Assembly: GCA_049325595.1 (NCBI GenBank) | Contig: JBMOLF010000015.1 | Coordinates: 64,001-128,000, forward strand | Length of the DNA: 64,000 nt | From: Candidatus Babelota bacterium | Lineage (GTDB): Bacteria > Babelota > Babeliae > Babelales > Vermiphilaceae | Direction: 5' to 3' | Shown: positions 17,043-35,046 of the stretch, in pieces | Layout: every line of letters begins with the position of its first letter | How positions within the stretch are numbered: the stretch's first letter is position 1 | Made by a program: the position numbers and the translations under genes | Notes under the pieces: generated by a model | Databases searched by the model: none | Seen by the model: only the letters and a program-made list of their open reading frames with translations | Told to the model about the DNA's origin: nothing

Positions 17043-17116
17043 TGGGGCGTAGCCAAGTGGTAAGGCACCGGGTTTTGGCTCCGGCACCGGAGGTTCGAAT
17101 CCTCCCGCCCCAGCCA
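17043..17116 (+). tRNA. tRNA-Gln (anticodon TTG)
   Basis: Acceptor stem TGGGGCG/CGCCCCA, D-arm AGCCAAGTGGTAAGGC, anticodon loop TTTTGGC, GGTTCGAATCC, encoded CCA. Confidence 0.95.
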
Positions 17117-17200
17117 GTCTTCGTTCTCAAGAACTTCTTCTGGCATCCTTCTACGTTAAAAACTTCGTAGGACAAGAGCCATCAAATTTAAAAGCGATTT
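17113..17200 (+). repeat. 88-bp direct repeat A, copy 1 (overlaps the tRNA 3' GCCA)
   Basis: 83/88 nt identical to 22564-22651; two imperfect hairpins. Confidence 0.9.
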
Positions 17201-17272
17201 GTATTTTTACAAGTTGCTTTTTTTGTTTTTAAATGTGATTTAATATAGTTATTTTTATAGTCATAGTAATTA

Positions 17273-17680
17273 ATGCAGAATTTTCATATGAAAAAAGTTA
17301 TTGCGGCCGTTTTTGCAAAAGATGGCAAAGTTCTGATAGCGCAACGAGCAAAAAAAGATGTGCTTTTTGGTAAATGGGAATTTCCTGGTGGCAAGCTTGA
17401 AGACAATGAAACCGAACATGAGTGTTTAAAGCGTGAACTATTTGAAGAGCTTGGTATACATGTTGAAGTCGGTTCTTACATCTGCTCAAGTTATTTTGAA
17501 CACAAAAACGCACCCTATGAAATGAGGGCATATTTTGTTACTTCATATTCCGGTGAATTTGTTTTGCATGAGCATCAAGAAATCAAATGGGTTGCTCATG
17601 AAGAACTATCTGAGTACGATATGCCAGAACCGGATAAGCCTATAGTGGAAAAGCTACTTGAAATTAATATGAAGAAATAA
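17273..17680 (+). CDS. MutT-like NUDIX hydrolase, copy 1
   Basis: WEFPGGKLEDNETEHECLKRELFEELGI Nudix box. Confidence 0.9.
   Translation: MQNFHMKKVIAAVFAKDGKVLIAQRAKKDVLFGKWEFPGGKLEDNETEHECLKRELFEELGIHVEVGSYICSSYFEHKNAPYEMRAYFVTSYSGEFVLHEHQEIKWVAHEELSEYDMPEPDKPIVEKLLEINMKK
17371..17655 (+). repeat. 285-bp repeat identical to 24799-25083
   Basis: Manual comparison found no mismatch from taaatgggaa to gtggaaaagct. Confidence 0.88.
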
Positions 17681-17862
17681 ATAATTAATTGTTAAATTTT
17701 AATTAAACAGACTAACGTTAGTATTAGGTTATATCACTAACGCTTTTTTTATTAAGTTTTATTTGTTCATTAAGAAGCCTAAATAAAATCTGCTAGACTC
17801 TTTTGATAGATTGAATGTGCAAAATAAGTTCCTTAATAAACAACTTTCAATAGTTGTAACTG

Positions 17863-18279
17863 CTATTTACTCTTTTTGCGAGCATGAATAGCTTTTGATG
17901 TTGGTGAAGAAGTAGGTTGTTTTTTAAGTGGGCTTTTCTTAATAGGAGTGGTAATAGCTACCGTTACACTTGCTTTGGTTGTTGATCGTTTTTTTGGAGC
18001 AACCGTTATGGTTATTGCTTGGCCTAAAATATTTAAAAAGCGAAAAAGCCTTTCAAGAGAAAATCCTGATAATTTCCCTTTACTCAGCGCAGAAATTTTT
18101 GGTTGATCAATAGAAAGCAGTTCAGCTGCTGCTGCTTGCGTAAGGCCTTGTTGCTTGATTAAAGTATTGATTTGTCGGGCAAGCTCTGCCTTAGCAAGAC
18201 GTTCTTCTGGATTTGCAACACCAAGATCAGCAAATACATTTCCTGAACTTACTTCATAATCATTAGTATGTTTTTTCAT
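17863..18279 (-). CDS. HigA-like XRE/HTH antitoxin with a basic C-terminal tail
   Basis: SSGNVFADLG, LTQAAAAELLSIDQPKISAL, FSLERLF; lies downstream of a toxin. Confidence 0.85.
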   Translation of the reverse strand: MKKHTNDYEVSSGNVFADLGVANPEERLAKAELARQINTLIKQQGLTQAAAAELLSIDQPKISALSKGKLSGFSLERLFRFLNILGQAITITVAPKKRSTTKASVTVAITTPIKKSPLKKQPTSSPTSKAIHARKKSK

Positions 18280-18283
18280 GGCC

Positions 18284-18646
18284 TTACTTCTTCTTAAATT
18301 TTTCTTTATAAATTTCTTCAGCTAATTTCAATCTACTTTTTATAAGCTCTATGTCTTGTTGTGGTGTTTTAATGCCCTGCTTTGATTTCTTTTGAAAAGC
18401 ATGAAGCACAAACACTACTTCAGGCATGGTAACCGTGTACACTACCCGATAGGTTCCAGCAGCATCAGAATCTTTAATTTCAATAACACCAGCACTACCA
18501 AATCCTTTAAGAACTTTTGCATGTTCAGGCATTTGACCCTTTTGAGCAAGGTATAACCCATAGCCCATGGAGTCTATCACCTCATCAGGGAGATCTTGTA
18601 AATCTTTTTTGCTTGAGCCAATCCAGATCAGTTCTTTGTGTTTCAT
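18284..18646 (-). CDS. RelE/HigB-like (phage gp49 type) toxin
   Basis: WIGSSKKDL, GTYRVVY, VLHAFQKKSKQGIKTP; toxin-first gene order. Confidence 0.85.
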   Translation of the reverse strand: MKHKELIWIGSSKKDLQDLPDEVIDSMGYGLYLAQKGQMPEHAKVLKGFGSAGVIEIKDSDAAGTYRVVYTVTMPEVVFVLHAFQKKSKQGIKTPQQDIELIKSRLKLAEEIYKEKFKKK

Positions 18647-18658
18647 TTTTGCTACTCA

Positions 18659-18694
18659 GTTAAAATTATACCATATTTGGCATAATTTAACAAT
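18659..18694 (-). promoter_or_regulatory. TA promoter overlapped by an inverted-repeat operator
   Basis: Minus strand TTGTTA-17 nt-TATAAT overlapping the imperfect palindrome gttaaaattatacca-tatt-tggcataatttaac. Confidence 0.6.
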
Positions 18695-18761
18695 AATTTA
18701 ACTCAAAGGCAAAAAGTATGCAAAATTGTTTATAGTTAGATTATTTCTTTAAGCAGCAACC

Positions 18762-19898
18762 CTATCTTTTTATAAATTTCTTATACTGCTTATTAATCGG
18801 TTCGAATTTGACCAATTGTTCCCGCAATGCCTTAAAATGATCAAGAGCCCTAGACAGTTGTATCTTGCTTACATCTGCAATGAGTCGTTGCCAGCTTCGC
18901 GGCGAGCAGCGTGAAAACATAGTTCTTAATTCACGCATGTCCATGATTTCAAGCACTTTTTTAAAGCCATACAGCTGTAATAGTTGTTTTGGCCCTAAAT
19001 TGGGATTATTAAACATTAAATCAACGAGCAAGGCTTTACCATTGGTTGATTGGTAATCAAGCAATAGCGGGCGCTTGCTAACGAGTTCATCAAAATAATG
19101 TAACAAAACCTTTTTAGAAATCGCGGGTTTGAACATTTTTTTAAAGGTTACATCAGTTTTAATACCAAGCTTGGTGAACAACTCTTTAATTTTAACGCGC
19201 TTGTTTAACCGCACTTCCATGCGTAGCACTTCAAACTTAGTGCGTCTTTTTTGCAATTGTTCGTGGGTGGTTAATTGAAGTTCGTTATCTTTTTCAACTG
19301 CTCGCTTATTACTGGTCTGAGCTTTTTCAAGATCGCGAATTTTATCATAGAAAGCGACTTCATAATAATTGGTAAGCCATTTAAAACTGTGGCCGGCATT
19401 GCGATAGGCAGTTTCATTTACATCAAGTGAGAGCTTGGTGTTAGCTTCTTTGATTTTGTTAATGTAAAAATGTGGCGTTGAGCCATCGGTTAAACACATG
19501 TTTTTTGAATAATGGATGGCAGATACGGGTGCTGATGCGATTGCAGTTGAGGTTGTGCATATGCCCATTGCTTGTAGCGTTGCTACTAGTTTGTTAATGA
19601 TGGATGGAAAATCTTTGTAACGCAGTTCGCTAAAATTGTTGCCAAATACGAGCTTGGGTAATGACAGTTCAATTTTAAGAATAATTTCTGGTTTGCCTAA
19701 AAGATTATAACGATATGCAAGAGTAAGACGCGGCTTATAGATTCCTTTTGTGAGTTCTTTTTTTAAAGGGTTTTGCTTTGATTGCATGCCACGTTCAATT
19801 TTTTTTGAAAGTGCCCATGCTGCTGATGGGATAAATAACTCTGGATCGGTAATTTCAAACAAATCTCTACTCAGGGTAATAACTATCGTGTCAATCAT
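18762..19898 (-). CDS. Putative rolling-circle replication initiator (phage/plasmid gene II/X, Rep_trans-like)
   Basis: MIDT start, SLPKLVFGNNF, FYDK and LRMEVRL motifs. Confidence 0.6.
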   Translation of the reverse strand: MIDTIVITLSRDLFEITDPELFIPSAAWALSKKIERGMQSKQNPLKKELTKGIYKPRLTLAYRYNLLGKPEIILKIELSLPKLVFGNNFSELRYKDFPSIINKLVATLQAMGICTTSTAIASAPVSAIHYSKNMCLTDGSTPHFYINKIKEANTKLSLDVNETAYRNAGHSFKWLTNYYEVAFYDKIRDLEKAQTSNKRAVEKDNELQLTTHEQLQKRRTKFEVLRMEVRLNKRVKIKELFTKLGIKTDVTFKKMFKPAISKKVLLHYFDELVSKRPLLLDYQSTNGKALLVDLMFNNPNLGPKQLLQLYGFKKVLEIMDMRELRTMFSRCSPRSWQRLIADVSKIQLSRALDHFKALREQLVKFEPINKQYKKFIKR

Positions 19899-20015
19899 GA
19901 TGCTCGCTACAAGGTGATATTATTTTGCATGCATCAAGGATAAAAGAGATGGTAATAAAGACAAGCGTAAATGATTAGTTAATATTTGAGAATTTCGTGT
20001 ATTGGTTCGTGACTT

Positions 20016-20243
20016 TTATCGAGTAAGCAATAGATAAAGAATTACAGCGATAATAATTGCTAATAAAGAAGCCCGCTCAATGAGCGAGCCTACTGTGCGC
20101 CCTTGATTGGGAGCTTTTGATTGTTTGGTTTTTGAACTGCTTATACGCTTATCAATGGTGGCCAGTATCTGAAAGAACGTAGCCAATCGTTGTTGATCTG
20201 AAAAAGACAATAGTCTTTGTGTTGTTTGCTTTTTTAGAGACAT
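20016..20243 (-). CDS. Small hypothetical protein upstream of the Rep-like gene
   Basis: 75-aa ORF with an amphipathic FFQILATIDKR helix and a hydrophobic C-terminus. Confidence 0.45.
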   Translation of the reverse strand: MSLKKQTTQRLLSFSDQQRLATFFQILATIDKRISSSKTKQSKAPNQGRTVGSLIERASLLAIIIAVILYLLLTR

Positions 20244-20303
20244 AAAAAAATTGTTGATTGTTAGATCAATTTAAAAATAAATAATACTTAAGTGGATTAC
20301 TTA

Positions 20304-21206
20304 GAGCCTATCCGGAAATTAAATTTTTCTAAGAACAATGATCTGGCAAGCAAATTGAAGTAGAGCTAGATGATTGTTTGCTAACTTATCCCATCGTATT
20401 AAAAGTCGCCTGAATCGAGTTATCCAAGAAAAAGTGCGTTCAACGCCCCATCGAAATTTAAGGTTAACTTTTTGAGAAATTTGATTTCTGCGCTTGTTGC
20501 AACTAATTCTGAAAGAGTACCCTCGACTTGCCAAATATTTTCGAATAAAAGATGCATCGAATGCTGCGTCTAGTTCAATGGTTTTGAATGGTAATATTCG
20601 ACTATAAATTTGATTGGCAATTGTTGAAATAAATGTTTTTGAATCATGCGTATTACCAGCAAAAAGATTTATTGCCAACGGAATGCCATTTTTATCAATT
20701 AAAAGAGCTTTTTTTGTTCCTAACTTCCTCCGATCAACTGGACTTAAGCCTGTTTCTTGGCCACCAAGCGGAGCTTTTGCATGACTGCAATCAAAGGATT
20801 GATTTTGCAAATTAAGCCCTATAAATCGATCATATTTTTCAAGAGCATGATGCCATGCTTGTGCAAAAAAATCAGTTTTTACTAGTCTTTGAAAGTGCTC
20901 ATGAATTGTTGATGAAGGACCAAAACATTTTGGTAAAGCGTTCCATTGACAGCCAGTTTTCAATAGATAAAATATGCCTTGTAAAATTGCTAATGGCTCA
21001 CTTTTAGGCCTGCCTTTTTTAATTTTTTGTGGCATAAATTTTAAAAGATGTAATACTTGTTCATCATTCATCAAAAACTTTTTTGATATGCATGTTGCAA
21101 AGCATGTATTCATAAAATCCTCTCTTCTTTTTTTTCATCGGAAATTTAGAGAGGATTTTACTTTTTAATACCTATTTTTTCAAATTATGATTTTCCGGAT
21201 AGGCTC
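20304..21206 (-). mobile_element. IS5-family insertion sequence, 903 bp
   Basis: Perfect 15-bp TIRs GAGCCTATCCGGAAA (20304-20318 and 21192-21206); TTA target duplication (20301-20303 and 21207-21209). Confidence 0.93.
20319..21113 (-). CDS. IS5-family DDE transposase
   Basis: GCQWNALP, D...D...RWGVERTFSWITRFRRL motifs. Confidence 0.92.
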   Translation of the reverse strand: MNTCFATCISKKFLMNDEQVLHLLKFMPQKIKKGRPKSEPLAILQGIFYLLKTGCQWNALPKCFGPSSTIHEHFQRLVKTDFFAQAWHHALEKYDRFIGLNLQNQSFDCSHAKAPLGGQETGLSPVDRRKLGTKKALLIDKNGIPLAINLFAGNTHDSKTFISTIANQIYSRILPFKTIELDAAFDASFIRKYLASRGYSFRISCNKRRNQISQKVNLKFRWGVERTFSWITRFRRLLIRWDKLANNHLALLQFACQIIVLRKI

Positions 21207-21317
21207 TTAATAAGAAAGCTCAAATGAAGAGCTGAATGATTCAGAAATGCATTTGCAATCTAAGAGCCATGATGACGTATGCAAATGCTCGTGCGGCCTA
21301 TAGATGTATGGATTCAT
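21207..21317 (-). CDS. Putative 36-aa micro-ORF MNPYIYRPHEHLHTSSWLLDCKCISESFSSSFELSY (absent from the ORF track)
   Basis: GAGAG RBS-like sequence; the homolog at 25928-25993 keeps MNxY..RxHEHLH with synonymous changes and a 6-nt indel. Confidence 0.45.
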   Translation of the reverse strand: MNPYIYRPHEHLHTSSWLLDCKCISESFSSSFELSY

Positions 21318-21442
21318 GGGATTACTCTCTTGCATAGATTGCTTTTGATGTTACTACTTGATTGGCAAGTATATCTAATTTAATGGTTAACTCAAGCGAA
21401 ATCGAGTGAAAAGCAAAGAAGGCTGTATCTGTTACAGCCTTC
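21234..21442 (-). repeat. Repeat B, copy 1: terminator + promoter + structured leader/micro-ORF
   Basis: Clearly homologous to 25903-26117, with conserved stems. Confidence 0.8.
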
Positions 21443-21462
21443 TTTTTAAACAGCTTAACTAT

Positions 21463-22293
21463 TTAATCTTTTAATTTTTCTAAATATTTTATAGCTTCTT
21501 GATTGCCACTATCTTTGATCCATTCACGGAGTGTTTTACGATCTAGACTCCAGCTAAATTCCAGTGGTTGATTATTAATAAAATTTGAGCCAAATATTTT
21601 TTGTACCGTATCAATAATTAAAGCAAGAATTTGTGTATTGGAGGTATTCTCTACACCTAAATAGATTTTATATTCATCTTCGATTCCTAAGTAGAAAACT
21701 TTGAGGAGCTCATTTCCAATTTTATTAGTGAAGGTAAATCGATTATTGATAAAAAAATTATTAAGGGCACCTAAAATTATGGCACTTACTTCTTCGCTTT
21801 TGCATAAAATTCCTTCATTGGAAGTTGATACATTGAATAATGACAAGTAATTTTTCAAATCTTGTTTTGTTATTGTCTGCTTTTGATTTTTTATGCTATT
21901 TATTAAACTATTAATTTGACCTTTTGCATCCGGAATCTTTGCAAAATGAACTAATGCTTCTTTTAAAATTCTTAAAGTTTTTTGTTGAATGTTGGGATTA
22001 TCATAATTACCAGAAGCCAATGCTGTTAAAGAAAGATCAAATTTTTGATTGAGTATTTTTTTAATAGATTCTTTGTTTTCTTTTATATAGTGAGCGATTG
22101 CTTTATTAACTTGTGCATAGTTACTTAAAAGAGTAAGTGCTTCATCACGAGTGCTTGATGTATTTAATATTTGTTTTATTATTTCTGTAGTTTGTAACTC
22201 ATAAGGCAAATCAGTAAATTTTAGTAGGTTTTTTTCCATAGTGGAAACATCCATGACTATCAATGAGCCTAAGAGTAAATAATATAATTTCAT
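21463..22293 (-). CDS. Secreted protein with an N-terminal F-box-like motif
   Basis: Signal peptide, then MEKN...FTDLPYELQTTEIIKQIL; paralog of 28558-29373. Confidence 0.65.
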   Translation of the reverse strand: MKLYYLLLGSLIVMDVSTMEKNLLKFTDLPYELQTTEIIKQILNTSSTRDEALTLLSNYAQVNKAIAHYIKENKESIKKILNQKFDLSLTALASGNYDNPNIQQKTLRILKEALVHFAKIPDAKGQINSLINSIKNQKQTITKQDLKNYLSLFNVSTSNEGILCKSEEVSAIILGALNNFFINNRFTFTNKIGNELLKVFYLGIEDEYKIYLGVENTSNTQILALIIDTVQKIFGSNFINNQPLEFSWSLDRKTLREWIKDSGNQEAIKYLEKLKD

Positions 22294-22563
22294 ACCAGGT
22301 CCTTCAGAGGTATTTATTTTCTTAGTATATATCCACTAATATACCAAAATAACAATTCAAATTGTAATATTTTTTTGTTTAGATTGCATAGATATAAATA
22401 AACTAACTTATTAAAATGCATCAGAAGTAATTTTTTGTAAAAGAGATTCAAATTTTTTAACTAAATTTTTGTTTTAATCCTAAAACTGAATATGCGGTTG
22501 GGATGCGTTATAAAGTAAATCCAAACTCAATTTTTCCGTTCCTGAACGCGTCTATTAAGTCTA

Positions 22564-22651
22564 GCTAGTCTTCGTTCTCAAGAACTTTGTCTAGCATTCT
22601 TCTACGTTAAAAACTTCGTAGGACAAGAGCCATCAAATTTAAAAGCGATTT
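22564..22651 (+). repeat. 88-bp direct repeat A, copy 2
   Basis: 5 mismatches versus 17113-17200, two of them compensatory (GCCAG/CTGGC to GCTAG/CTAGC). Confidence 0.9.
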
Positions 22652-22949
22652 TGTAGAAATACTGACTTTTTTATTGTTTTCTTTTTAATGCGCATGGAAT
22701 TTTTTGCGTTTACATTTCATAATAAAAAAATTGAATCTATTCTGCAGTAACTAGTTCAGAGGCTCATTCATAGCTTTTCCAAAATAATAATTATATGTAG
22801 CTTAATCCTTAAATAATTTAAGCTACACTAATTTTAAGTGGGAGGTTATGATAGCGATTTAAATTAGAAAAATAGAAATATATAAATAATAATGTACAAA
22901 AGAAGAGCTCTAATATAATTAAATCTTTTTTATCATATATCTGTTTTTA

Positions 22950-23513
22950 TTACTGAAGTGCTATGCGATAGAACAAATATGGAAGTTTATATGATAAGAT
23001 CATTGCAAAATATATTTTTAAGAAAAGACCAAGCATAGAAATATTAAATGGCCAATTTAATGCCCGTATTACTGCTATAAGACATTTTTGAAACCATGTG
23101 TTGGCCAGCTCTTTAGGACTCACTAAATCTTTTTTGCTCGGAAACGCACATATGCCTATAATTATACCCAGGGTGTATAATGCCAAGCTCGCCGTGTAAT
23201 ATATGGATGACGTTGCATAATTAAAATTGTTGCCTAAAGTGTAAATGGTACTTACAACATGTGGAAAGGTTAAAAACATGCAAATTAAAGAATTTACAAA
23301 AAATGGTGCAATACCTATCAATAGATCAATGTAAAATTTTTCATTTTTTTCATGTATTACATAGCCGCTGGCCTCTGAGCTAAAGCTTAAGTAGCGAACT
23401 TTGAGAACTCGGACATTAAAAATATCGCAAAAAAAACGATGTGCGATTTCATGAATTATAATGCCGGGACTGGTTATGATTGTTATTGCATGTGGTGGAA
23501 TCCAAATTATCAT
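22950..23513 (-). CDS. Membrane zinc metalloprotease-like protein (M50-like/DUF3267-like)
   Basis: PGIIIHEIAH HExxH motif, GYV, IAPFF, PSxxD; several TM helices. Confidence 0.65.
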   Translation of the reverse strand: MIIWIPPHAITIITSPGIIIHEIAHRFFCDIFNVRVLKVRYLSFSSEASGYVIHEKNEKFYIDLLIGIAPFFVNSLICMFLTFPHVVSTIYTLGNNFNYATSSIYYTASLALYTLGIIIGICAFPSKKDLVSPKELANTWFQKCLIAVIRALNWPFNISMLGLFLKIYFAMILSYKLPYLFYRIALQ

Positions 23514-23515
23514 AA

Positions 23516-23953
23516 TTACCCTCGAATAAATGATGCTTTGAAATCATCGTGATATTGTTTTGGCAGATATGTTACCAGTTCTTTAATTTGAGCGTCTGTA
23601 TATGTTTTATTGGGTTGGCTGTAGAAGTAGCTCAATGCGTAATCATAAAACTCAGGTTGTGTATCGCTTTGCGCAAAGCAACATTGAATAAGTCGTTTTT
23701 GAGCGTGCTCAAATGAATTATAGTTTTCTACTAGTTTAAGAAATTTTTGTGCTGCCCTTTCGTAATTTTTTTGTGAAAAATGAAGTTCTGCGATTAATAT
23801 TTTTTTGTGTAAATGTTTGAGGTTTTTTAATTCAAACACAAAAAAACGGATAAGTACTGCGATAAAGATAATAATAAGTATTAGACCAAATAGTTTTATA
23901 ACTAATGGGTAGGTATGTTTGGGTAAAAATTGATCATGCATTGCGGTCTCCAA
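23516..23953 (-). CDS. Membrane-anchored protein with a TPR-like helix pair
   Basis: N-terminal TM helix; AELHFSQKNYERAAQKFLKLV. Confidence 0.55.
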   Translation of the reverse strand: METAMHDQFLPKHTYPLVIKLFGLILIIIFIAVLIRFFVFELKNLKHLHKKILIAELHFSQKNYERAAQKFLKLVENYNSFEHAQKRLIQCCFAQSDTQPEFYDYALSYFYSQPNKTYTDAQIKELVTYLPKQYHDDFKASFIRG

Positions 23954-24139
23954 AAAACTGTGGCAATACTAGCAATAAATTACTAGAACGGCAATTTTTT
24001 TCTGAACGTAGTATGCACTGTTAAAATAGAGGGTAGGAATAAATTGCTGAATAATTAACCTATTATTTGTCATTGCTTGATAATGACCATAAACTACAAT
24101 CAGTAAATGTTTAAAATTTAATAGCAAAGTAATTAAACT

Positions 24140-24679
24140 ATGAAAAAACATTTTGTGTGTTTCTTGTACTTAGGATCTATTGTTGCTGGAGAACAAATTG
24201 ATTTGCTCAAGAACTATAATCTGCGAGAGCCATATTATCCATCGTATGTTGATTTAAATCACTATGGGTTTTGTTTACGCGCTGCAAAAGATTTGCCTGC
24301 GGGAACCGTTGTGGCGACGGCAAATTTTGAAGAAAGCAATAATCCTTATATTGCCAATCACTCTGATCCTGAATATAAATATGTTGCATTAGTAGATGTG
24401 AATGCTGAAGGTATTCCAACGTGGGGAAGAATTAGAGGAAAATGGGCATTTTGTAATCATTCCTGTGATCCTAACTGTGATATTAAGCCCGGATGGATTA
24501 TTACCACGAATCGTTTTATACAACAAGGTGATGAACTTACTACTTCTTATGATGCATATATACCAGGTTTTGCATGGCCTGATAATTGGAATTTTTCCTG
24601 TTTATGTCAGACTGCCAACTGCAAGAAATTTATTACTGGGTATCGATTTGATATGATATATCCGCTAGCTCGTCAATAA
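24140..24679 (+). CDS. SET-domain lysine methyltransferase with post-SET cysteines, probably exported
   Basis: GFCLRAAKDL, FCNHSCDPN, ELTTSY, CLCQTANC; signal-like N-terminus. Confidence 0.88.
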   Translation: MKKHFVCFLYLGSIVAGEQIDLLKNYNLREPYYPSYVDLNHYGFCLRAAKDLPAGTVVATANFEESNNPYIANHSDPEYKYVALVDVNAEGIPTWGRIRGKWAFCNHSCDPNCDIKPGWIITTNRFIQQGDELTTSYDAYIPGFAWPDNWNFSCLCQTANCKKFITGYRFDMIYPLARQ

Positions 24680-24700
24680 GATATACAACGGGATGTATCA

Positions 24701-25099
24701 ATGAATAATTCGGTTACAAAAAAAGTAATTGCGGCAGTATTGGTAAAAGATAATACCGTGCTGATAGCCCAGCGCGCAAAGCCAGATGTGAACTATGATA
24801 AATGGGAATTTCCTGGTGGCAAGCTTGAAGACAATGAAACCGAACATGAGTGTTTAAAGCGTGAACTATTTGAAGAGCTTGGTATACATGTTGAAGTCGG
24901 TTCTTACATCTGCTCAAGTTATTTTGAACACAAAAACGCACCCTATGAAATGAGGGCATATTTTGTTACTTCATATTCCGGTGAATTTGTTTTGCATGAG
25001 CATCAAGAAATCAAATGGGTTGCTCATGAAGAACTATCTGAGTACGATATGCCAGAACCGGATAAGCCTATAGTGGAAAAGCTTCTTGAGATTATTTAA
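24701..25099 (+). CDS. MutT-like NUDIX hydrolase, copy 2
   Basis: Nudix box; 3' part identical in DNA to copy 1. Confidence 0.9.
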   Translation: MNNSVTKKVIAAVLVKDNTVLIAQRAKPDVNYDKWEFPGGKLEDNETEHECLKRELFEELGIHVEVGSYICSSYFEHKNAPYEMRAYFVTSYSGEFVLHEHQEIKWVAHEELSEYDMPEPDKPIVEKLLEII

Positions 25100-25101
25100 T
25101 T

Positions 25102-25431
25102 TTATCTACCGCGAGCAAGTGCTGCAGCATAATTAAATTGATAAAAATAATCTTGCCATTCTTGGTCAGTTGATTGGTATTCATTGTCAAATGCAAAATG
25201 ATCAACAAGTAAATACCGGGCGCGGCATAGTTCTTTAAGACGTTTTTTGTTTTTAGGATCAGCGATGGTAAGATCTAATAATTCTAACGCACGTTCAAAA
25301 GCTTGTCGGCTGTATTCAGAGTTTTTATTTTTCCATTCTATAGTACGCTCAATATCCATGCCAACATTGGCAAGTTGTTCAAAAAGGGTAAATTTGAACC
25401 ATCGCTCGTGAGTTAAATCTTTATGTATCAT
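25102..25431 (-). CDS. Helical hypothetical protein, coupled to the upstream gene
   Basis: ATGA overlap with 25428-25808; EQLANVG..IER and ELCRAR motifs. Confidence 0.65.
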   Translation of the reverse strand: MIHKDLTHERWFKFTLFEQLANVGMDIERTIEWKNKNSEYSRQAFERALELLDLTIADPKNKKRLKELCRARYLLVDHFAFDNEYQSTDQEWQDYFYQFNYAAALARGR

Positions 25432-25808
25432 GGTTTTACCAATTTCATTACAATTTTAATAATTTTTTGTTGGATTTGAGGATTTTCAACAGTTCGTGAG
25501 CGATTTCCTTGGCTAGGACGCAAATTAATCATCGAATCAAATTTAATAAATTCTGGTTTTCCCCAATGTTGCGGATACAGATTAATTCCCCAAAGATTTT
25601 CTTGTTTTGAGTCATATTTTTCGAGCAACCAGGTTTCTTGGTCGACATGCATTGGTGCATCAACAATCATTACTTCTTTTTCAACGTCTACTACGGCTTT
25701 GACTAATGCCTCAAACATTTTAGTGGACATTTGTTTAAGTTCTTCAAGAAAAATTTCTTTTTCTACCAGTTTCATAAATCTTCCATTTTTACTAAATTTA
25801 ATAGCCAA
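25428..25808 (-). CDS. DUF5674-like protein
   Basis: KAVVDVEK, MHVDQE, LWGINLYP, SMINLRPSQGNRSR. Confidence 0.7.
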   Translation of the reverse strand: MAIKFSKNGRFMKLVEKEIFLEELKQMSTKMFEALVKAVVDVEKEVMIVDAPMHVDQETWLLEKYDSKQENLWGINLYPQHWGKPEFIKFDSMINLRPSQGNRSRTVENPQIQQKIIKIVMKLVKP

Positions 25809-25902
25809 TACTAAAAAGATTACACGCTAATCTTCAAAGTTCAACTTATATGGCTATAAGTTAATCTTTTCTTGTTTTTTATAGGTATCTTAATTATAAA
25901 AA

Positions 25903-26117
25903 GAATGATTCAGAAATGCATTTGCAATCAGAAAGCCATGCATAAATTATGCAGGTGCTCGTGCTGCCTGATAATGTAGTTGTATAGATTCATGAGTGTA
26001 CTCTTTGTTTTGATTGCTTTTATGTTACTACTTGGTGGGCAAGTATATCTAATTTAATGATTAGTGCAACTGGCTAGGATTGAAAAAATAAAGAAGGCTG
26101 TGTACCTTGCAGCCTTC
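25903..26117 (-). repeat. Repeat B, copy 2, containing the 21-aa micro-ORF MNLYNYIIRQHEHLHNLCMAF (25928-25993)
   Basis: Homologous to 21234-21442. Confidence 0.8.
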
Positions 26118-26127
26118 CTTTATTTGA

Positions 26128-26550
26128 TTATCTATTTAATTTATTGATAGTTTCCAAATATTTAATTGCTTCTTGATTATTGGACTTTCTCACCGTATCG
26201 AGTAGGGTTCCTTCGGAATTATAACCCATTTCTTTATCAATAAATTTCGGACCAAATATTTTTACTGCTGTATTAATAATTAAAGTTATAATCTGTGTCC
26301 AATTTTTATCTTTACCCATTGTGCCAATATGATCTTTCAATAAGTCGACAAACTCGAGCTCAGAAAGTTTGAAATCCACCTTATTATTACTAAAAGCGTT
26401 GTTTATTGTACCTAACACTACGGCAGCAAGCTGAAATTTATTGGGATATCCCGATCCAAGTATTTTTCCTAAATATTCTATATCACCACCTATGCCTAGA
26501 AAAACACTATCACTTCTCTCTTTAGTGTTAATATAAGTTACTAAAATTAA
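26128..26550 (-). pseudogene. Orphan C-terminal half of the 21463/28558 protein family
   Basis: Frame is open to about 26550 with no signal peptide or F-box-like part; shares TQII.LII...IFG..FI and NQEAIKYLE. Confidence 0.6.
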
Positions 26551-26551
26551 G

Positions 26552-27316
26552 TTACTGAATTCCCAGCTGAGCTTTTACCCGTGCATCGATGTCGTTAATA
26601 ATTTGCATGGCTTCTTCTGGGGAAAGTTGTTGATAGAGCTTTTGCTCTAGAAAATCGATTACTATAGGCATTTTTTCACTGTACTCCGCGGTTACATCTT
26701 GATCCATTATCGCTTTTTGAGCTAGAAATAATAATTCCTTAATATTTTTTAAGCTAAAGATATCAGGATTGTATTTACTTAGTAGCTCTAATACAGGAAC
26801 TGAAATTCCATATTCTACCGCATAAGAATCAAGAGTCCATCCATTGAACTGGCGGTACTTTGGATTATATCCTTTATCGAGCCATTGTTTTAGAGAATTT
26901 AAATCTCCGCTTCGAATATATTCCAAGGCAGTGTTAAATTGTTGATCATTAGTAGAAATTACATTAAAGCTTGCATTTGGGTTTACTTTTTTAAGCCACT
27001 CTTCAGCTAATTTAGTGTTAAGGGCTCGTGCGATTGCAGTTTCAGAGCCAGGAAATTTTGTGAGCAATGAGTTTAGAACACCAAAAAGTATTGTTGTGTT
27101 GTTGGTGATTTGATCATAAAGATCTTTATTTACAAAGCGTATATTTTGTAAATTTGTTATAGCATCTGAAATTGATGGTGCATCTACAACATGCTTTAAA
27201 ATTTCTGTTTTGAGTTCGGGTAATAATTGCTCTAATGGAAATGATGTCTGTTCTTTTTCCATACTAACTAATTGTGTGCTTGCTATGGCTAAAGTGAGTA
27301 ATAAAATTTTTTTCAT
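26552..27316 (-). CDS. Secreted F-box-like protein with a degenerate ankyrin-like region
   Basis: Signal peptide-MEKE; LEQLLPELKTEILKHV; GDLNSLKQWLDKGYNP...GWTLDSYAV. Confidence 0.6.
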   Translation of the reverse strand: MKKILLLTLAIASTQLVSMEKEQTSFPLEQLLPELKTEILKHVVDAPSISDAITNLQNIRFVNKDLYDQITNNTTILFGVLNSLLTKFPGSETAIARALNTKLAEEWLKKVNPNASFNVISTNDQQFNTALEYIRSGDLNSLKQWLDKGYNPKYRQFNGWTLDSYAVEYGISVPVLELLSKYNPDIFSLKNIKELLFLAQKAIMDQDVTAEYSEKMPIVIDFLEQKLYQQLSPEEAMQIINDIDARVKAQLGIQ

Positions 27317-27507
27317 GTTATCTCCTATTATACGTCTTGTTTCAAATTAAATATTCTATTATGAATTATAGCAGAGTGAAGTAGCTAATATAAAGAAAAT
27401 ACGTTAAAAGACGTAAAAAAATAAGATTTTTTGTTTTTTATTCATTGTAAATTGCTTAAATACTTATTAAGCCAAGTTTTTGATTATCTTAAAGAAAGAT
27501 TGGGAGT

Positions 27508-28397
27508 CTATCGTTGAGTTGGAATAAAAATGTATTTCAAGAGAAAGTAATGATGATTTCCCACAGCGCAGAAATTTTTATTGATCAATAATAAGCAATT
27601 AAGTTCCGGGGTTGCGTAAGACCTTTTTTTGCTGGATTGAAATATTGATTTATTTTCCACAAGTTCATCTTTGTTAATTTTTAATTCTCCCAGATGATAC
27701 CATGGCCAATCGAAGTAAAAACTGATGTGATCGTTGCTAAAAGTAAAGGAGGTAAAATTTTCTTCTTTAGGCTGAGTTTGCCAATCATTTTCCCAGAATC
27801 CAATGCCCATATCTTGTTCTTCATCAACAAGATGAGCTCTGCAAACTTTACTAATTTTTTCAAGATAGCAGTAATCACTCTCAAATAAATCTTTAAGATC
27901 AATTTTTTTCTTTTTCTTTATATCATAATTAAATGTGTAGTGGGCAAAAAATGGCTGAGCATTCCCATGGCAATAACCTGAATGATGAAATGCGATGCTA
28001 ATATATGAATCATTTATTTGGGCGATGTGGTATGTGCATTCAAAAGATGAAGCACCATTTTCTTTGATGCGGGCCATTTCTTGCGAGTCATCAAAGTCGC
28101 CATTTGCAAGACAATCATTGTAATGTTGTAAAGCTAATTCATTGGCTTTGTTATATTCATTAGTAATCAAATTTTCAATCCAACTATTTACTTCTTCGGG
28201 AGCATTTTCAAAATAAGGTATGTGTAATTTAAGTTAATATGAATATCTTTTTTTGTTATTTGTTTCTCAATAACCCTAATCAGAGTAGATTGGCCCAAAG
28301 AGTTATTTATAATACCAGATGATTTTTTTGCATATAATATAAAACAGGTAATTAAAATTATACAAATGCTCAGTAGGCCTAATGTTTTTTTAATCAC
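27508..28397 (-). pseudogene. Frameshifted RsiV/DUF3298-like exported protein (ORFs 28188-28397 + 27508-28170)
   Basis: Adding one C near 28217 gives a continuous YTYPYFENAPEEVNSWIENL...; TFNYDI...IDLKDLF motif. Confidence 0.6.
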
Positions 28398-28557
28398 TGA
28401 TTTTCCTTATTAAAGTTATTTTTAAAATATTAGTAAATCTCGCATATGCTTCATTTAAGGTTTTACTAAAATATCAAGCAGATAGGATTATTAAAAGTGA
28501 TTATAAAAGTAAAAAGATGCGAATCAAGTTTAGTTTTTGAATCTTCTTAGGAATTTT

Positions 28558-29373
28558 TCATTGATTTTTTATAGTTTCTAAATATTTAATAGCAGCTTTA
28601 TTACCCGTAGTTCTGGTAAAATTAAACAAAGTACCGCTTTTTGACATATGCTGGCCAATTTCATTATCAATAAAATTGGGTCCAAATAATGTTATGGCTT
28701 GATTGATGATTGAAATTAAAATTTGAGTTAATGGTTTATTCTTTCCAAAAAAACTAATAAAACCTTTGAGCAAATCTACAAATTGTGACTCATTATTTTT
28801 ATTTAGTACCGGATGAGTATGATTAATAAAATTATCGAATACGCCTATAAGAGCTGCACTTAATGAATAATCTTTATCTAGCAGTGATCGAGCAAGAAGA
28901 CCTATGTACATGTGTACATTCACAATAGTTATTTTATCATTTTTATTTTTAATAAATGTTATTAAGGTATTTAAGGTCTCGCTATAGGAACTATATTTGT
29001 GTGTTGCTTTTTGCAAAACTTTTATTGTTTCTGCTTTGATATTGGGATCATTATAATTACCTGAAGTTAAAACAGTTAATGAAAGACCAAATTTTTGATC
29101 GAGTATTTTTTGGATAGTATCTTTATTTTCTTTTATGTATTCAGCGATTGCTTTATTAACTTGTGCATAGTTGTTTAAAAGAGTAAGTGCTTCATCGCGA
29201 GTATTTGAGATGTGTAATAATTGCTTTACTATCTCTGTTGTTTGAATATCAGATGGTAGTTCTGGTAACGAACTAGTAAAGGGTTGAGTAACCCATTTTT
29301 TTATTTTATTCCAAACGCCCATGCTAAAAATTGGCGAGTTTAAAAATAAAATCAAAATTATGAGCTTTTTCAT
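28558..29373 (-). CDS. Secreted F-box-like protein, paralog of 21463-22293; likely start MKKLII
   Basis: GGAG RBS; LPELPSDIQTTEIVKQLL; TRDEALTLL.NYAQVNKAIA shared with the paralog. Confidence 0.65.
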   Translation of the reverse strand: MKKLIILILFLNSPIFSMGVWNKIKKWVTQPFTSSLPELPSDIQTTEIVKQLLHISNTRDEALTLLNNYAQVNKAIAEYIKENKDTIQKILDQKFGLSLTVLTSGNYNDPNIKAETIKVLQKATHKYSSYSETLNTLITFIKNKNDKITIVNVHMYIGLLARSLLDKDYSLSAALIGVFDNFINHTHPVLNKNNESQFVDLLKGFISFFGKNKPLTQILISIINQAITLFGPNFIDNEIGQHMSKSGTLFNFTRTTGNKAAIKYLETIKNQ

Positions 29374-29692
29374 GAAAGTATTTCTCCAATTAATGCTTAA
29401 TGATCCCAAAGAATCGCACAATAAATTAATTTTATATGATTATTCTTAATGTTGGAGTTCTTTAGTTTACCAGTTTCATAATGCAGATTGTAATAGTTTT
29501 AAAAATAGGTTTGTTTAACATAAAGGTTGTAATTAATTTAGTTAATTGGTCTCAAATGCATTTTTATGTTACATTAATAAAAATTACTTATTAAATTTCT
29601 GCTCTTAAGCGTATTAATAAATTTTCCATACCTACTAAGGTTAGTGTACCCAAATAGAAAAATGCACTTAGTGAATATAAGCAGGATAAATT

Positions 29693-30484
29693 ATGAAAAA
29701 AATAATACAGAGCAATCGACCACTAAATGGTCAATTGCTTGATACCATTAAAGCAGCATTTAATTCTTCGATTGACTTTACTCAATATCCATTTTGCTTG
29801 GATGTGGTACAAAATTTAAAAGAAATTAAGTTTACAACACCAGTTACCTTTTTTGTTGGAGAAAATGGTACCGGTAAATCAACTATTCTTGAAGCAATTG
29901 CTTATCATGCCGGTTTTGGTATTGAAGGTGGTAGCAAAAATATTAATTTTAAAACGGCATCAGAAAAGCATTATTCAAGCGCAGAGCAATTAGCAGATTG
30001 CTTAACTTTATCCTGGAATCGAAAATCTGAAGATGGTTATTTTTTTAGGGCAGAAACATTTTATAATGTTGCTAATCATCTTGACCATATAGCGCTTTTT
30101 GGCGGAGGTGGTGATAAAACTTATGCTCCGTATGGTGGTAAATCATTGCATGAACAATCTCATGGTGAAAGTTTTTTATCTTTTTTTAAAAATCGGTTGG
30201 GGAAAGGTGGCTTTTTTGTATTAGACGAGCCAGAGGCCGCACTTTCTCCCCAACGGCAGTTGTCTTTAATGGTTATTATTAATCAATTATGCAAGCAAAG
30301 TTCTGCTCAATTTATTATTGCTACCCATTCACCGTTACTTTTGGCTTATCCAGGTGCAGTTATTTATTCTTGTGATAATGGTAAACTTGATACTAAATCT
30401 TATAAAGATACTGATCATTATCAAATAACCAAAAGTTTTTTGGATAATACTGATTATTTTTTGCATCATTTGTTTAATGATTAA
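29693..30484 (+). CDS. Stand-alone ABC/AAA-type ATPase (COG3910-like)
   Basis: GENGTGKST, SHGESF, LDEPEAALSP, IATHSP. Confidence 0.85.
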   Translation: MKKIIQSNRPLNGQLLDTIKAAFNSSIDFTQYPFCLDVVQNLKEIKFTTPVTFFVGENGTGKSTILEAIAYHAGFGIEGGSKNINFKTASEKHYSSAEQLADCLTLSWNRKSEDGYFFRAETFYNVANHLDHIALFGGGGDKTYAPYGGKSLHEQSHGESFLSFFKNRLGKGGFFVLDEPEAALSPQRQLSLMVIINQLCKQSSAQFIIATHSPLLLAYPGAVIYSCDNGKLDTKSYKDTDHYQITKSFLDNTDYFLHHLFND

Positions 30485-30547
30485 CTTTACGCTTTATTTC
30501 TTTTTTACTATAGTCTCCACAAGTTAATTCAAACTAAGGAGTACTAC

Positions 30548-31345
30548 ATGAAAAAGAAGATAACGCTTCTTGCATTATTATCAATTCCGTATGCATATGC
30601 GTATGATGTTGATTGTGCCAATATTAAAGAGATGTATGATCGTGCGCAGATGTACATGCAGGCCAATAGACCCGGTTACACATCTCATGCCGTTGAAATG
30701 TTTCAAGCAATTTATGATAAATGTAAAGACAAGTCAAAAGATAAAGAAACATTAGGAAACACGGTTTATCAGATTGGCAGAGCTCATTGGCACGGTTATG
30801 GTGTTGGCAGAAATTATCCTAAAGCATGCAGTTATTTTGATGAATTGATTAGCCAATATGCAGATGTAGCCGACCATAATTTGGTTGGGTATTCTCAAAT
30901 GTTTATTGCAGATGGCGCACGTAATGCTTTGTGTGAAGAACGCAATTGGGCAAAAGCAATAATAATGTATAAAAAAATCATTGCTGATGAAAAATTTACA
31001 AAGGCTGATATTAAAGCATGGGCGCAAGCTCGTTTAGGAGATGCTTATCGCGAAGGTGAAGGAATAGGGCAAGACTATTCAAAAAGTTTTGAGCTCTTTA
31101 ACTCTATTATGAATGATGATAAAAACATTCCTGATAAATCAGTTGTAGCATGGGCAAAGTTTTGGATAGCAGATGCTCATGAACATGCAAAAGGTGTAGA
31201 AAAAGATTTAGATAAAGCACATGCAATGTTCACTGATATTGTTGAAAATTATAAAGAATTGGATCCAATAGCTGTTATTCATGCACAAGATCGATTAAAG
31301 AAAATGGAAGAAGCTGGCTATAAACCGAATGTAAAAAAAGATTAA
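30548..31345 (+). CDS. Secreted Sel1-like repeat protein
   Basis: Signal peptide; repeated A...LG..Y..G.G...D..KA units. Confidence 0.8.
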   Translation: MKKKITLLALLSIPYAYAYDVDCANIKEMYDRAQMYMQANRPGYTSHAVEMFQAIYDKCKDKSKDKETLGNTVYQIGRAHWHGYGVGRNYPKACSYFDELISQYADVADHNLVGYSQMFIADGARNALCEERNWAKAIIMYKKIIADEKFTKADIKAWAQARLGDAYREGEGIGQDYSKSFELFNSIMNDDKNIPDKSVVAWAKFWIADAHEHAKGVEKDLDKAHAMFTDIVENYKELDPIAVIHAQDRLKKMEEAGYKPNVKKD

Positions 31346-31366
31346 TATTATTTTAGAAGGATTGCT

Positions 31367-31708
31367 ATGAAGAAATTGTTATTAACAACTCTTGTAGTTA
31401 CTGCTATGAGTCTATATGCCGATGCTGACCCAAGAAAACCATTAGAACAAATGCGTGAACATAAACGACAAGATGACTCAATGACAGCTAAAGATTTTAT
31501 TGTTGCTGGGGTGATTGGCGGTTGCGCTATTGAACTTGCTAATGTAATTAGAAAAGATGAAAATTATAAAAAAGTTTTAGCTTTTGCAATGGATTATCCG
31601 GGTGTTTTTGTTGCCGGTGTTTCAGCATCAGCTGGTCTTATTTACATTTATGGTAAAGGGATTAAAAATTTTCTTTCGCGTTATAAGCTCGTAGCTAAAT
31701 CAGAATAA
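31367..31708 (+). CDS. Secreted/membrane hypothetical protein
   Basis: AAGGA RBS, signal peptide, two hydrophobic helices. Confidence 0.6.
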   Translation: MKKLLLTTLVVTAMSLYADADPRKPLEQMREHKRQDDSMTAKDFIVAGVIGGCAIELANVIRKDENYKKVLAFAMDYPGVFVAGVSASAGLIYIYGKGIKNFLSRYKLVAKSE

Positions 31709-34493: not shown

Positions 34494-35046
34494 AGAGGTT
34501 AATTCCTCGCGGCTTGCCGCGGGACAAAAGTCCTTATAAACTGGAGTTATGAGTCGCTACATACATAAAAGTCATAACGTATCAGTACTAATGTATCATA
34601 TAGTTTGTCCCGCGAAATACCGGAAAGCAGTATTTAACGAAGAGATAGATAAAATCTTAAAGTTAGTTTGCTTAGAAATTGAACTGAGATATGAGATAGA
34701 GTTCCTAGAAATAGGAACGGACCGAGATCATGTACATTTTCTTGTGCAATCAGTACCAACGTATAGTCCAACAGAAATAGTAAAGAAAATAAAGAGCATC
34801 ACAGCGAGAGAAATTTTCAAGAGAGCTCCCTATGTTAAAAAAGAATTATGGGGAGGCGAATTTTGGTCGAGTGGATATTATATTAGTACTGTTGGTAAAC
34901 ATGGAAGCGAGAAACGAGTAGCTGCATATGTTAAAAATCAAGGTCAAGAATATAATTTGTTGCACAAACAAGATCCTAAAAAATTCGGACAGATGTTTTT
35001 CCTATAAATAGTTTTGATACCTCGCTGCTTGCTGCGAGGTTATTCA
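34494..35046 (+). mobile_element. IS200/IS605-family element (tnpA only); ends approximate
   Basis: Related subterminal hairpins tcctcgcggcttgccgcggga (34504-34524) and acctcgctgcttgctgcgaggt (35019-35040), the latter followed by TTCA. Confidence 0.8.
34549..35007 (+). CDS. tnpA: IS200-family Y1 HUH transposase
   Basis: YHIVCPAKYR, DHVHFL (HUH), FWSSGYY, YVKNQ. Confidence 0.93.
   Translation: MSRYIHKSHNVSVLMYHIVCPAKYRKAVFNEEIDKILKLVCLEIELRYEIEFLEIGTDRDHVHFLVQSVPTYSPTEIVKKIKSITAREIFKRAPYVKKELWGGEFWSSGYYISTVGKHGSEKRVAAYVKNQGQEYNLLHKQDPKKFGQMFFL

Follow-up and report, generated by a model that had tools for sequence, protein, structure and literature searches.

How did a gene for a putative rolling-circle replication initiator (Rep) come to lie between two direct repeats directly behind a tRNA-Gln gene, in a segment that has no integrase of its own? 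We addressed this question in a stretch of 64,000 nucleotides from a Candidatus Babelota bacterium (hereafter the window), which is part of contig C15 of genome G000 (1.29 Mb, ~34% G+C). A preliminary description had read the segment as a minimal, recombinase-free replicon that inserts by Rep-mediated strand transfer at a hairpin in the repeat. Our analysis points to a different history, in which the segment is probably a decayed representative of a family whose integrative members pair this Rep with a large serine recombinase (LSR) and target the very 3' ends of tRNA genes, the window copy having lost its integrase. We take the integrase-less state to be derived because 63 of 77 Rep loci carry an LSR downstream and because the window retains the end module of the family.

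The 378-aa protein is, on its modelled fold, a rolling-circle initiator of the Rep_trans/gpII superfamily, in agreement with the preliminary description. An AlphaFold model (43 homologs; predicted local distance difference test, pLDDT, 84.6; predicted template-modelling score, pTM, 0.84) was searched against structure representatives with VIA-align, which placed RepDE first (4cwc_A; Z 8.8, 232 aligned residues, root-mean-square deviation 4.9) and RepSTK1 second (4cij_A; Z 8.4, 208 aligned residues), the next entry being a TBP-containing complex at Z 5.0. Foldseek returned eight matches at E ≤ 1e-3 among the viral models of BFVD, including Inoviridae G2P with a probability of 1.0, and weak matches in the PDB, the best being to RepD-type chains (4cwe_A, E 4e-3). 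Because the Foldseek search of the PDB is weak by itself, it is the VIA-align and BFVD results that carry the fold assignment. The N-terminal domain of gpII (PF05144, Phage_CRI) was reached by 2 of 43 close and 9 of 81 distant homologs, and PF02486 by none. Nine positions are invariant across the 81 distant homologs (E91, K132, N133, G169, Y184, D185, K186, R226 and E228), D3 is invariant in the close homolog set, and D189, which occupies the Glu position of motif III, is at least 90% conserved. The Rep_trans motifs, as listed in the excerpted text of PMC5714925, comprise an Asp in motif N', YxKxxE in motif III with the catalytic Tyr on a β-strand, and W/LxRxE in motif IV; against this list, D3 corresponds to N', Y184-x-K186 to III and R226-x-E228 to IV. 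The YDK and LRxE motifs noticed in the preliminary description are thus present, at positions that are invariant in the family. Y184 falls within a β-strand of the model (predicted residues 179-185), as in Rep_trans proteins and unlike in HUH enzymes. The family is large, with 1247 matches in a collection clustered at 90% identity and 992 clusters at 50% identity (E ≤ 1e-3), and the source names of the homologs point to Candidatus Babeliales (Dependentiae). The C-terminal helical domain of the protein (~277-352) shows a weak likeness to tyrosine-recombinase core-binding domains (XerA, XerD and lambda Int; Z 3.9-4.8), within the range of noise.

Relatives of the Rep are encoded in 280 stretches of species-representative genomes, and two sets of loci were compared. 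The first held 19 loci from 15 related genomes, and its scan for LSRs covered 150 of 238 called open reading frames (ORFs), those nearest the Rep; the second held 77 loci, one genome per species, collected with a closer Rep alignment as query. A tRNA gene stood on the expected side in 14 of the 19 loci of the first set, and an LSR, whole or in pieces, was likewise present in 14 of 19. In the second set an LSR was found in 66 of 77 loci; it lay downstream on the strand of the Rep in 63, of which 47 align over at least 450 aa. A minus-strand tRNA gene followed downstream in 48 of 77 loci (Asp 17, Asn 11, Arg 9, Glu 8, Gln 3), and the end of the LSR abutted or overlapped the tRNA in 44. The LSRs of these relatives have the domains Resolvase, Recombinase and Zn_ribbon_recom. 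The window matches this layout, its Rep lying on the minus strand a few kilobases 3' of, and antisense to, tRNA-Gln (end 17116); a search for a remnant of the LSR in the window returned only read-through of the tRNA itself. Because the placement of LSR and tRNA recurs across loci, the canonical element, as reconstructed from sequence, is ordered tRNA, LSR (antisense, with its last codons running into the tRNA), cargo, Rep, cargo, a 75-nt end module and the native trailer of the tRNA. A minimal design without an integrase, as first proposed, does not survive this comparison: the preliminary description had itself named Rep homologs that always stand beside an integrase as evidence against its model, which is nearly the situation in the second set, and the right boundary of the segment is the end module of the recombinase side.

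The own genome encodes two further full paralogs of the Rep and one wreck. The paralog on contig C10 lies behind tRNA-Arg(UCU) together with a 485-aa LSR and another Gp49/HTH (helix-turn-helix) pair, and the LSRs of this family in the genome comprise one intact copy (C10:99707-101161) and two broken ones. Rep genes, frequently multiple or fragmentary, occur in 15 of 60 further genomes of the family; none was found in G045, the only other congeneric genome searched. By record label the hosts also include Pacebacteria, Levybacteria, Woesebacteria, Saccharibacteria and Peribacteria, with contigs of up to 905 kb. A pattern scan of IMG/VR gave a single distant relative, with a Rep 32% identical, followed by an LSR, and with one gene there resembling a type IV coupling protein. 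No Zot-like ATPase, coupling protein or type IV secretion system gene was found among the 150 scanned ORFs of the Babeliales loci.

Some further loci carry details of their own. Contig C19 (7596 nt, L011) holds a full Rep paralog, a wrecked Rep, and an end module followed by a terminator; it also has two paralogs of the 276-aa cargo gene described below, an IS200-type Y1 transposase gene and, close to each of its ends, a copy of a 125-nt repeat (97% identical), and it may be the unassembled rest of a broken tRNA-Asp or tRNA-Glu element. An IS200-type Y1 transposase is also encoded at 34549-35007 of the window, with a Pfam score and E-value equal to those of C19 6952-7410. At L049 (10924-11223) a small ORF that overlaps the start of the Rep matches SpoVG (E 6e-12), and in the window tRNA-Gln stands directly behind the chromosomal spoVG. 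Three loci labelled Patescibacteria (L105, L117 and L126) have an end module upstream of the Rep that is separated by 100-200 nt from the LSR 3' end, a junction of attP-like or tandem-array type inside large chromosomal contigs.

The right boundary of the segment is where the window copy most closely resembles its intact relatives. Immediately left of the right repeat is a copy of the conserved end module (E 7e-19 against the module profile), which ends at the core where the repeat begins. Further copies are found ~5.6 kb behind tRNA-Arg in the C10 element, on C19 and C17, behind tRNA-Asp elements of the genomes G017 and G024, and in the tRNA-Gln island of G045. Across the second set the module was present in 47 of 77 loci, in 43 of them on the side of the Rep away from the LSR and on the opposite strand, and its last 6-9 nt are identical to the 3' end of the targeted tRNA. 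We read the module as the P-arm side of attP, the P' arm being the 3' end of the LSR gene. RNAalifold gave no consensus structure for it, and a hand-drawn inverted repeat pairs 77% of cells, with a one-column slide of the 3' partners scoring almost equally over the whole structure. The right junction joins the end module to the trailer and is thus of attR type; by this make-up the boundary is apparently a normal attR of the Rep-LSR family, which is hard to square with insertion mediated by the Rep. Repeats start at position -5 from the end of the tRNA in the window, in L077 and in L091, and in L093 the repeat ends at -3; the crossover therefore lies within the last few bases of the tRNA. No long direct repeats were found in 10 of 11 loci of the first set that are adjacent to a tRNA and carry an LSR, whole or in pieces. 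In L091 (Babeliales, JAGVLQ010000015.1), which bears an LSR, 94 nt spanning -5 to +88 of tRNA-Asp, with the LSR 3' end among them, recur without mismatch as a direct repeat at a distance of 5.6 kb; this hints at a tandem insertion beside the remnant of a like element.

The repeats themselves, which the preliminary description had correctly placed at the 3' end of tRNA-Gln, are 89 nt long and identical at 84 of 89 positions (94%). They begin 5 nt inside the tRNA (AGCCA) and run downstream; all five mismatches fall within the first 36 nt, the following 53 nt are identical, and strong divergence then sets in, with a weaker likeness that extends ~40 nt beyond position 89. Among the differences is a compensatory stem pair (GCCAG/CTGGC on the left, GCTAG/CTAGC on the right). 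As a search of the 1.29-Mb genome returned only two full copies (E 4e-41 and 2e-34), the repeat is not a chance likeness. In G045 homology to the window ends exactly at the last base of tRNA-Gln (17116), and the G045 terminator follows directly after CCA; it is recognisably the same as window 17182-17225 and also resembles the sequence 3' of the right repeat. The window thus has an extra 65 nt (17117-17181) between CCA and terminator that are absent from tRNA-Gln of G045. Comparable trailer modules follow 9 of the 36 tRNA and tmRNA genes of G000 directly after CCA (counted by eye; a strict regular expression flagged 4), namely those for tmRNA, four tRNA-Ser, three tRNA-Arg and tRNA-Gln. They are 30-65 nt long, have an outer stem that pairs with the tRNA's own CCA, and end in GCCA before an A/T-rich stretch. 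Because the 65-nt piece is one version of this module, the repeat is apparently the native trailer of tRNA-Gln in duplicate, with no element-specific origin; the module may be a footprint, or it may act as a landing pad or as a signal for processing. A classical tRNA island of a tyrosine integrase was considered and rejected, the repeat sharing only 5 nt with the tRNA and the three PF00589 genes of the genome lying elsewhere on C15. An Rfam scan of 16.5-26.5 kb found tRNA only, plus a sub-threshold match to a Trp leader (22.6 bits against a gathering score of 41) inside the 75-aa ORF. The left junction consists of tRNA and trailer and is attB-like, different from the junction of tRNA and LSR 3' end in intact relatives.

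Together, these features suggest the following course. In intact members, the LSR would recombine attP (end module, core and LSR 3' end) with attB (tRNA 3' end and trailer), crossing over in the last few tRNA bases. After excision the Rep is predicted to nick an origin and to sustain the circle by rolling-circle replication, and it may also act as a relaxase, as do the Rep_trans proteins of ICEBs1 and Tn916. In the window copy, the LSR and ~3.5 kb beside the tRNA would have been replaced by a second native tRNA-Gln trailer, yielding the 89-nt repeats; a toxin-antitoxin (TA) pair would have been gained, an insertion sequence (IS) would have entered between the 75-aa ORF and the cargo gene, and the NUDIX gene would have exchanged sequence with a chromosomal paralog. 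Because its left junction is attB-like and not attL-like, the element is probably no longer excisable by an LSR; it could still be looped out by homologous recombination between the repeats.

Contigs from two further metagenomic runs, X2 and X4, provide a view of a related strain, ~94% identical both in SpoVG-tRNA-Gln and in the Rep. There, tRNA-Gln is followed by 3533 different letters where the window has 17117-17290; then come NUDIX, 275 letters substituting for the TA pair, and Rep with the 75-aa ORF. The NUDIX gene, being linked to the Rep there as well, is part of the element, and the TA pair, replaced by the 275 letters, is an indel. The IS is missing from these contigs, which run cleanly from 20299 to 21206 with 4 shared letters; this precise absence marks it as a recent insertion with a target duplication of 3-4 nt. 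The 30 letters of X4 after 17116, read by eye on the other strand, contain the C-terminal motif of the family LSRs (..ILK-x-SD..), and these relatives most likely keep the integrase where the window has the left repeat.

Several points weigh against this account. The Rep of the window has no Pfam match (E up to 10) and no PHROGs match, and searches of PDB sequences with profiles of the Rep family gave chance matches only. The 77 loci overlap the 19 of the first set, and many come from related genomes, so that the counts are not independent. The end of the window's module (..AGCTA) fits the end of tRNA-Gln worse than that of its closest relative, L059 (..CAGCCA). An LSR in the unread 3533 letters of X2 is read, by eye, from 30 letters of X4, and the 3533 letters could instead be a separate small element inserted before an already LSR-less one. 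The origin of the left repeat is something that we infer. Contigs of the likely source run showed neither a circular junction nor an empty site, a weak negative, as contigs drop rare variants. Unitig depths of the source run were 31 for the element and 20-24 for the flanks, figures that cannot be ranked and from which we draw nothing. G045 failed as an empty site: its tRNA-Gln is followed by a 4.5-kb island that differs from the window's, and its tRNA-Arg(UCU) by a further island. Around a 117-nt likeness to G045 at 390 kb there is neither a Rep nor an LSR nor a paralog of the cargo.

It is conceivable, though on balance doubtful, that the LSR was lost before arrival, and that an LSR-less Rep circle, formed elsewhere by an imprecise excision that captured a trailer, entered an empty tRNA-Gln site by a single host-mediated crossover and may still cycle. 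Entry by host homologous recombination within the repeat is possible: the two copies resemble alleles of different lineages in their pattern of clustered differences, identity and divergence and in the compensatory stem pair, and this mosaic seems to fit a crossover between diverged alleles better than a fresh duplication in place. An attB-like left junction with end module and trailer on the right is the expected outcome of a Campbell insertion, the Rep is intact, and L047 (the same locus as L077), which is LSR-poor with a 52-aa LSR remnant, also has a repeat from -5, of 23 nt. That length, however, is short for RecA-type recombination, the circle and the empty site are the very structures missing from the source-run contigs, and gene conversion after a rearrangement in place could mimic the mosaic, as the NUDIX pair shows conversion at this locus. 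Mobilization in trans is an improbable alternative, in which the segment would be a satellite with working att sites, that is, a cis-mobilizable element (CIME), moved by the intact LSR of the C10 element at tRNA-Arg(UCU). The genome does hold that one intact family LSR beside the two broken ones, the end modules of window and C10 agree at 35 of 46 positions (by eye), and CIMEs and accretion are known for integrative elements according to the excerpted part of PMC5704250. The window copy has lost the integrase and kept an attR-like end. Its left junction is attB-like, without the P' arm that all intact relatives have there, so that there is no attL to pair with attR, and the C10 LSR targets another tRNA and is only ~66% identical to the tRNA-Gln LSR of L036.

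We regard the mechanism first proposed for this locus, a recombinase-free minimal replicon inserted by Rep-mediated strand transfer at the repeat hairpin, as very improbable. Reactions of Rep_trans and HUH proteins are reversible strand transfers at nick sites exposed by hairpins, as the excerpted text of PMC5714925 has it, and the repeat is able to form small hairpins; its folding as DNA is nonetheless no better than that of shuffled sequences (z -1.0 and -0.5). The full repeat is not the dispersed high-copy repeat that the preliminary description had named as evidence against itself, there being two copies only, but its inner hairpin motif is dispersed and shows no link to a Rep: it recurs in the trailers behind tRNA-Arg(CCU), tRNA-Arg(UCG) and tmRNA, and, as a weak match, behind tRNA-Ser(CGA), all of them places that lack a Rep nearby, and it was not found beside the Rep paralogs of C10 and C19. 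The LSR in 66 of 77 Rep loci and an end module of the LSR side at the right boundary speak against insertion through Rep or hairpin as well. An integrated filamentous, inovirus-like prophage is barely credible. The Rep resembles inovirus gpII, but the seven ORFs of the element gave no PHROGs match to structural or morphogenesis proteins and no Pfam match to pI/Zot or coat proteins, which bears out the preliminary statement that no capsid gene is recognisable; the Zot-like ATPase is missing from the 150 ORFs scanned in relatives, and the IMG/VR pattern scan yielded one relative only. Loss of the integrase from an LSR-bearing member of the family remains our preferred reading.

The features of the locus are collected in Table 1.

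Table 1. Features of the tRNA-Gln locus and the trailer modules of the genome. Positions are those of the window unless a contig is named.
Feature	Position	Strand	Remarks
tRNA-Gln (UUG)	17043..17116	+	target gene
Left 89-nt repeat	17112..17200	+	last 5 nt of tRNA, 65-nt trailer module (17117-17181) and first 19 nt of native-type terminator
NUDIX hydrolase, copy 1	17273..17680	+	Pfam
HTH_37 (HigA-like) antitoxin	17863..18279	-	Pfam PF13744, E 7e-27
Gp49/HigB-like toxin	18284..18646	-	Pfam PF05973, E 3e-21
Predicted rolling-circle initiator, Rep_trans/gpII (Phage_CRI) superfamily	18762..19898	-	frame intact, all nine family-invariant residues
75-aa ORF	20016..20243	-	hydrophobic C-terminus, upstream of Rep
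Insertion sequence, presumably IS5-type	20300..21205	-	transposase 20319-21113, terminal inverted repeats, (C)TTA target duplication 3-4 nt
276-aa cargo gene	21463..22293	-	multi-copy family
Conserved 75-nt end module	22494..22567	+	immediately left of right repeat, ends at core where repeat begins
Right 89-nt repeat	22563..22651	+	apparently displaced native trailer (B' side)
Trailer modules	C15:81117-81181 (= window 17117-17181); C15 behind 225446, 228254; C7 behind 69358
Trailer modules	C10 behind 149852, 153359, 153635; C12 behind 30686; C23 behind 7073

The NUDIX gene and the TA pair had both been recognised in the preliminary description, which had reported a TA pair and cargo genes here, and Pfam confirms them. 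The TA pair is putatively of HigBA type, the toxin gene lying directly upstream of the HTH antitoxin gene with 4 nt between them. A paralog of the NUDIX gene lies outside the repeats at 24701-25099, 7.4 kb away; the two copies (17291-17666 and 24719-25094) show 24 differences in 376 nt, almost all of them within the first third, and their last ~100 residues are identical, a distribution that points to a recent gene conversion involving the copy on the element and that of the chromosome. No homolog of the 75-aa ORF was found among the 77 other Rep loci; the ORF is kept in the X2/X4 strain. Direct repeats of 25 nt (18722-18746 and 20247-20271, 84% identical) flank the Rep and the 75-aa ORF and could be a promoter, a terminator or origin-related.

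The IS encodes a DDE-type transposase of 264 aa (DUF4096 and DDE_Tnp_1 in Pfam) and is bounded by inverted repeats of 39 nt (20297-20335 and 21175-21213; 74% complementarity); we take it to belong to the IS5 family from the Pfam names, and a genome search found no second copy. The statement that the segment has no recombinase therefore holds for an integrase and overlooks this transposase. The IS also occupies roughly the place of the structured leader proposed earlier, for which Rfam offers only the sub-threshold chance match mentioned above. Nor did the proposed F-box-like secreted gene hold up: for the 276-aa protein Pfam gave neither an F-box nor any other credible match, even with E raised to 10. 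Its paralogs lie in the window at ~25.9-26.4 and 28.6-29.4 kb, at C15:242-243 kb, and on C21 and C19.

The region 3' of tRNA-Gln (22652-31700, compared with G045:C1:546000-559500) is a hypervariable island in the genus, containing a SET-domain gene, Sel1/TPR genes, AAA_21, a MutS-like gene and multi-copy families. In G045 the 254-aa gene of the window (26552-27316) has three paralogs in tandem, and a degenerate end module comes after them.

The window copy itself is a relic of modest interest, and it is the family behind it that deserves attention. Babeliales live inside protists, and both host lineages are symbionts with reduced genomes; to our knowledge, almost nothing is known of gene exchange in Babeliales and Patescibacteria. 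Searches of the literature on recombinases, mobile elements and plasmids of Dependentiae, Babeliales and Patescibacteria, with subscription journals and supplements outside their coverage, yielded no description of a Rep-LSR family, which seems to be undescribed in these groups. As a tentative proposal, Rep, LSR and 75-nt module may define an undescribed class of integrative rolling-circle elements common to Dependentiae/Babeliales and Patescibacteria, targeting the ends of tRNA-Asp, -Asn, -Arg, -Glu and -Gln genes, with the trailer modules as their landing pads (B' half-sites) or footprints. If so, such elements would reshape tRNA 3' flanks across the genome. The family may explain the hypervariable effector islands 3' of tRNA genes in these genomes, and it offers a testable attP/attB system from uncultured lineages.

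Among known proteins, the Rep shares its fold, the Y-x-K and R-x-E motifs and the N-terminal Asp with the Rep_trans initiators (RepD/RepC of pT181-type plasmids and RepSTK1) and with inovirus gpII. It differs from the solved Rep_trans proteins in sequence (~10% identity) and in its extra C-terminal helical domain, and its setting is a family of chromosomal islands beside a serine integrase, not a small plasmid or phage. CTX-phi, with the Rep_trans protein RstA and no integrase of its own, integrates through the host XerCD at dif. Its Rep is mentioned in the excerpted text of PMC5714925. The window segment and CTX-phi are both integrase-less Rep elements; here, however, the integrase would have been lost secondarily, the site is a tRNA 3' end and not dif, and there are no virion genes.

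A closer parallel in composition comes from Firmicutes, where integrative and mobilizable elements (IMEs) and integrative and conjugative elements (ICEs) of the Tn916/ICEBs1/ICESt3 group pair a site-specific recombinase with a Rep_trans/MobT protein and where accretion and integrase-less CIMEs occur, according to the excerpted texts of PMC5704250 and PMC5714925. As far as those texts describe them, the family resembles these elements in combining a recombinase with a Rep_trans-type protein (for replication of the circle, as relaxase, or both), in its TA cargo, in tandem accretion and in its decayed integrase-less derivatives. On the same footing, it differs in its Babeliales and Patescibacteria hosts, in an LSR that acts at the last bases of a tRNA, in a Rep nearer to gpII than to PF02486, in its long conserved end module and in having no transfer gene in the Babeliales loci scanned. 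The IMEs with site-specific serine recombinases covered in the excerpt of PMC5704250 disrupt dispensable genes. The 75-nt conserved arm of the family is far longer than the usual attP half-site. Integration by large serine recombinases is familiar from phiC31, Bxb1, A118 and TndX of Tn4451. With these systems the family shares the domain set, the very short att overlap and the absence, in most loci, of long direct repeats; it is unlike them in targeting tRNA 3' ends and in an integrase gene whose stop codon falls inside or just beyond the tRNA.

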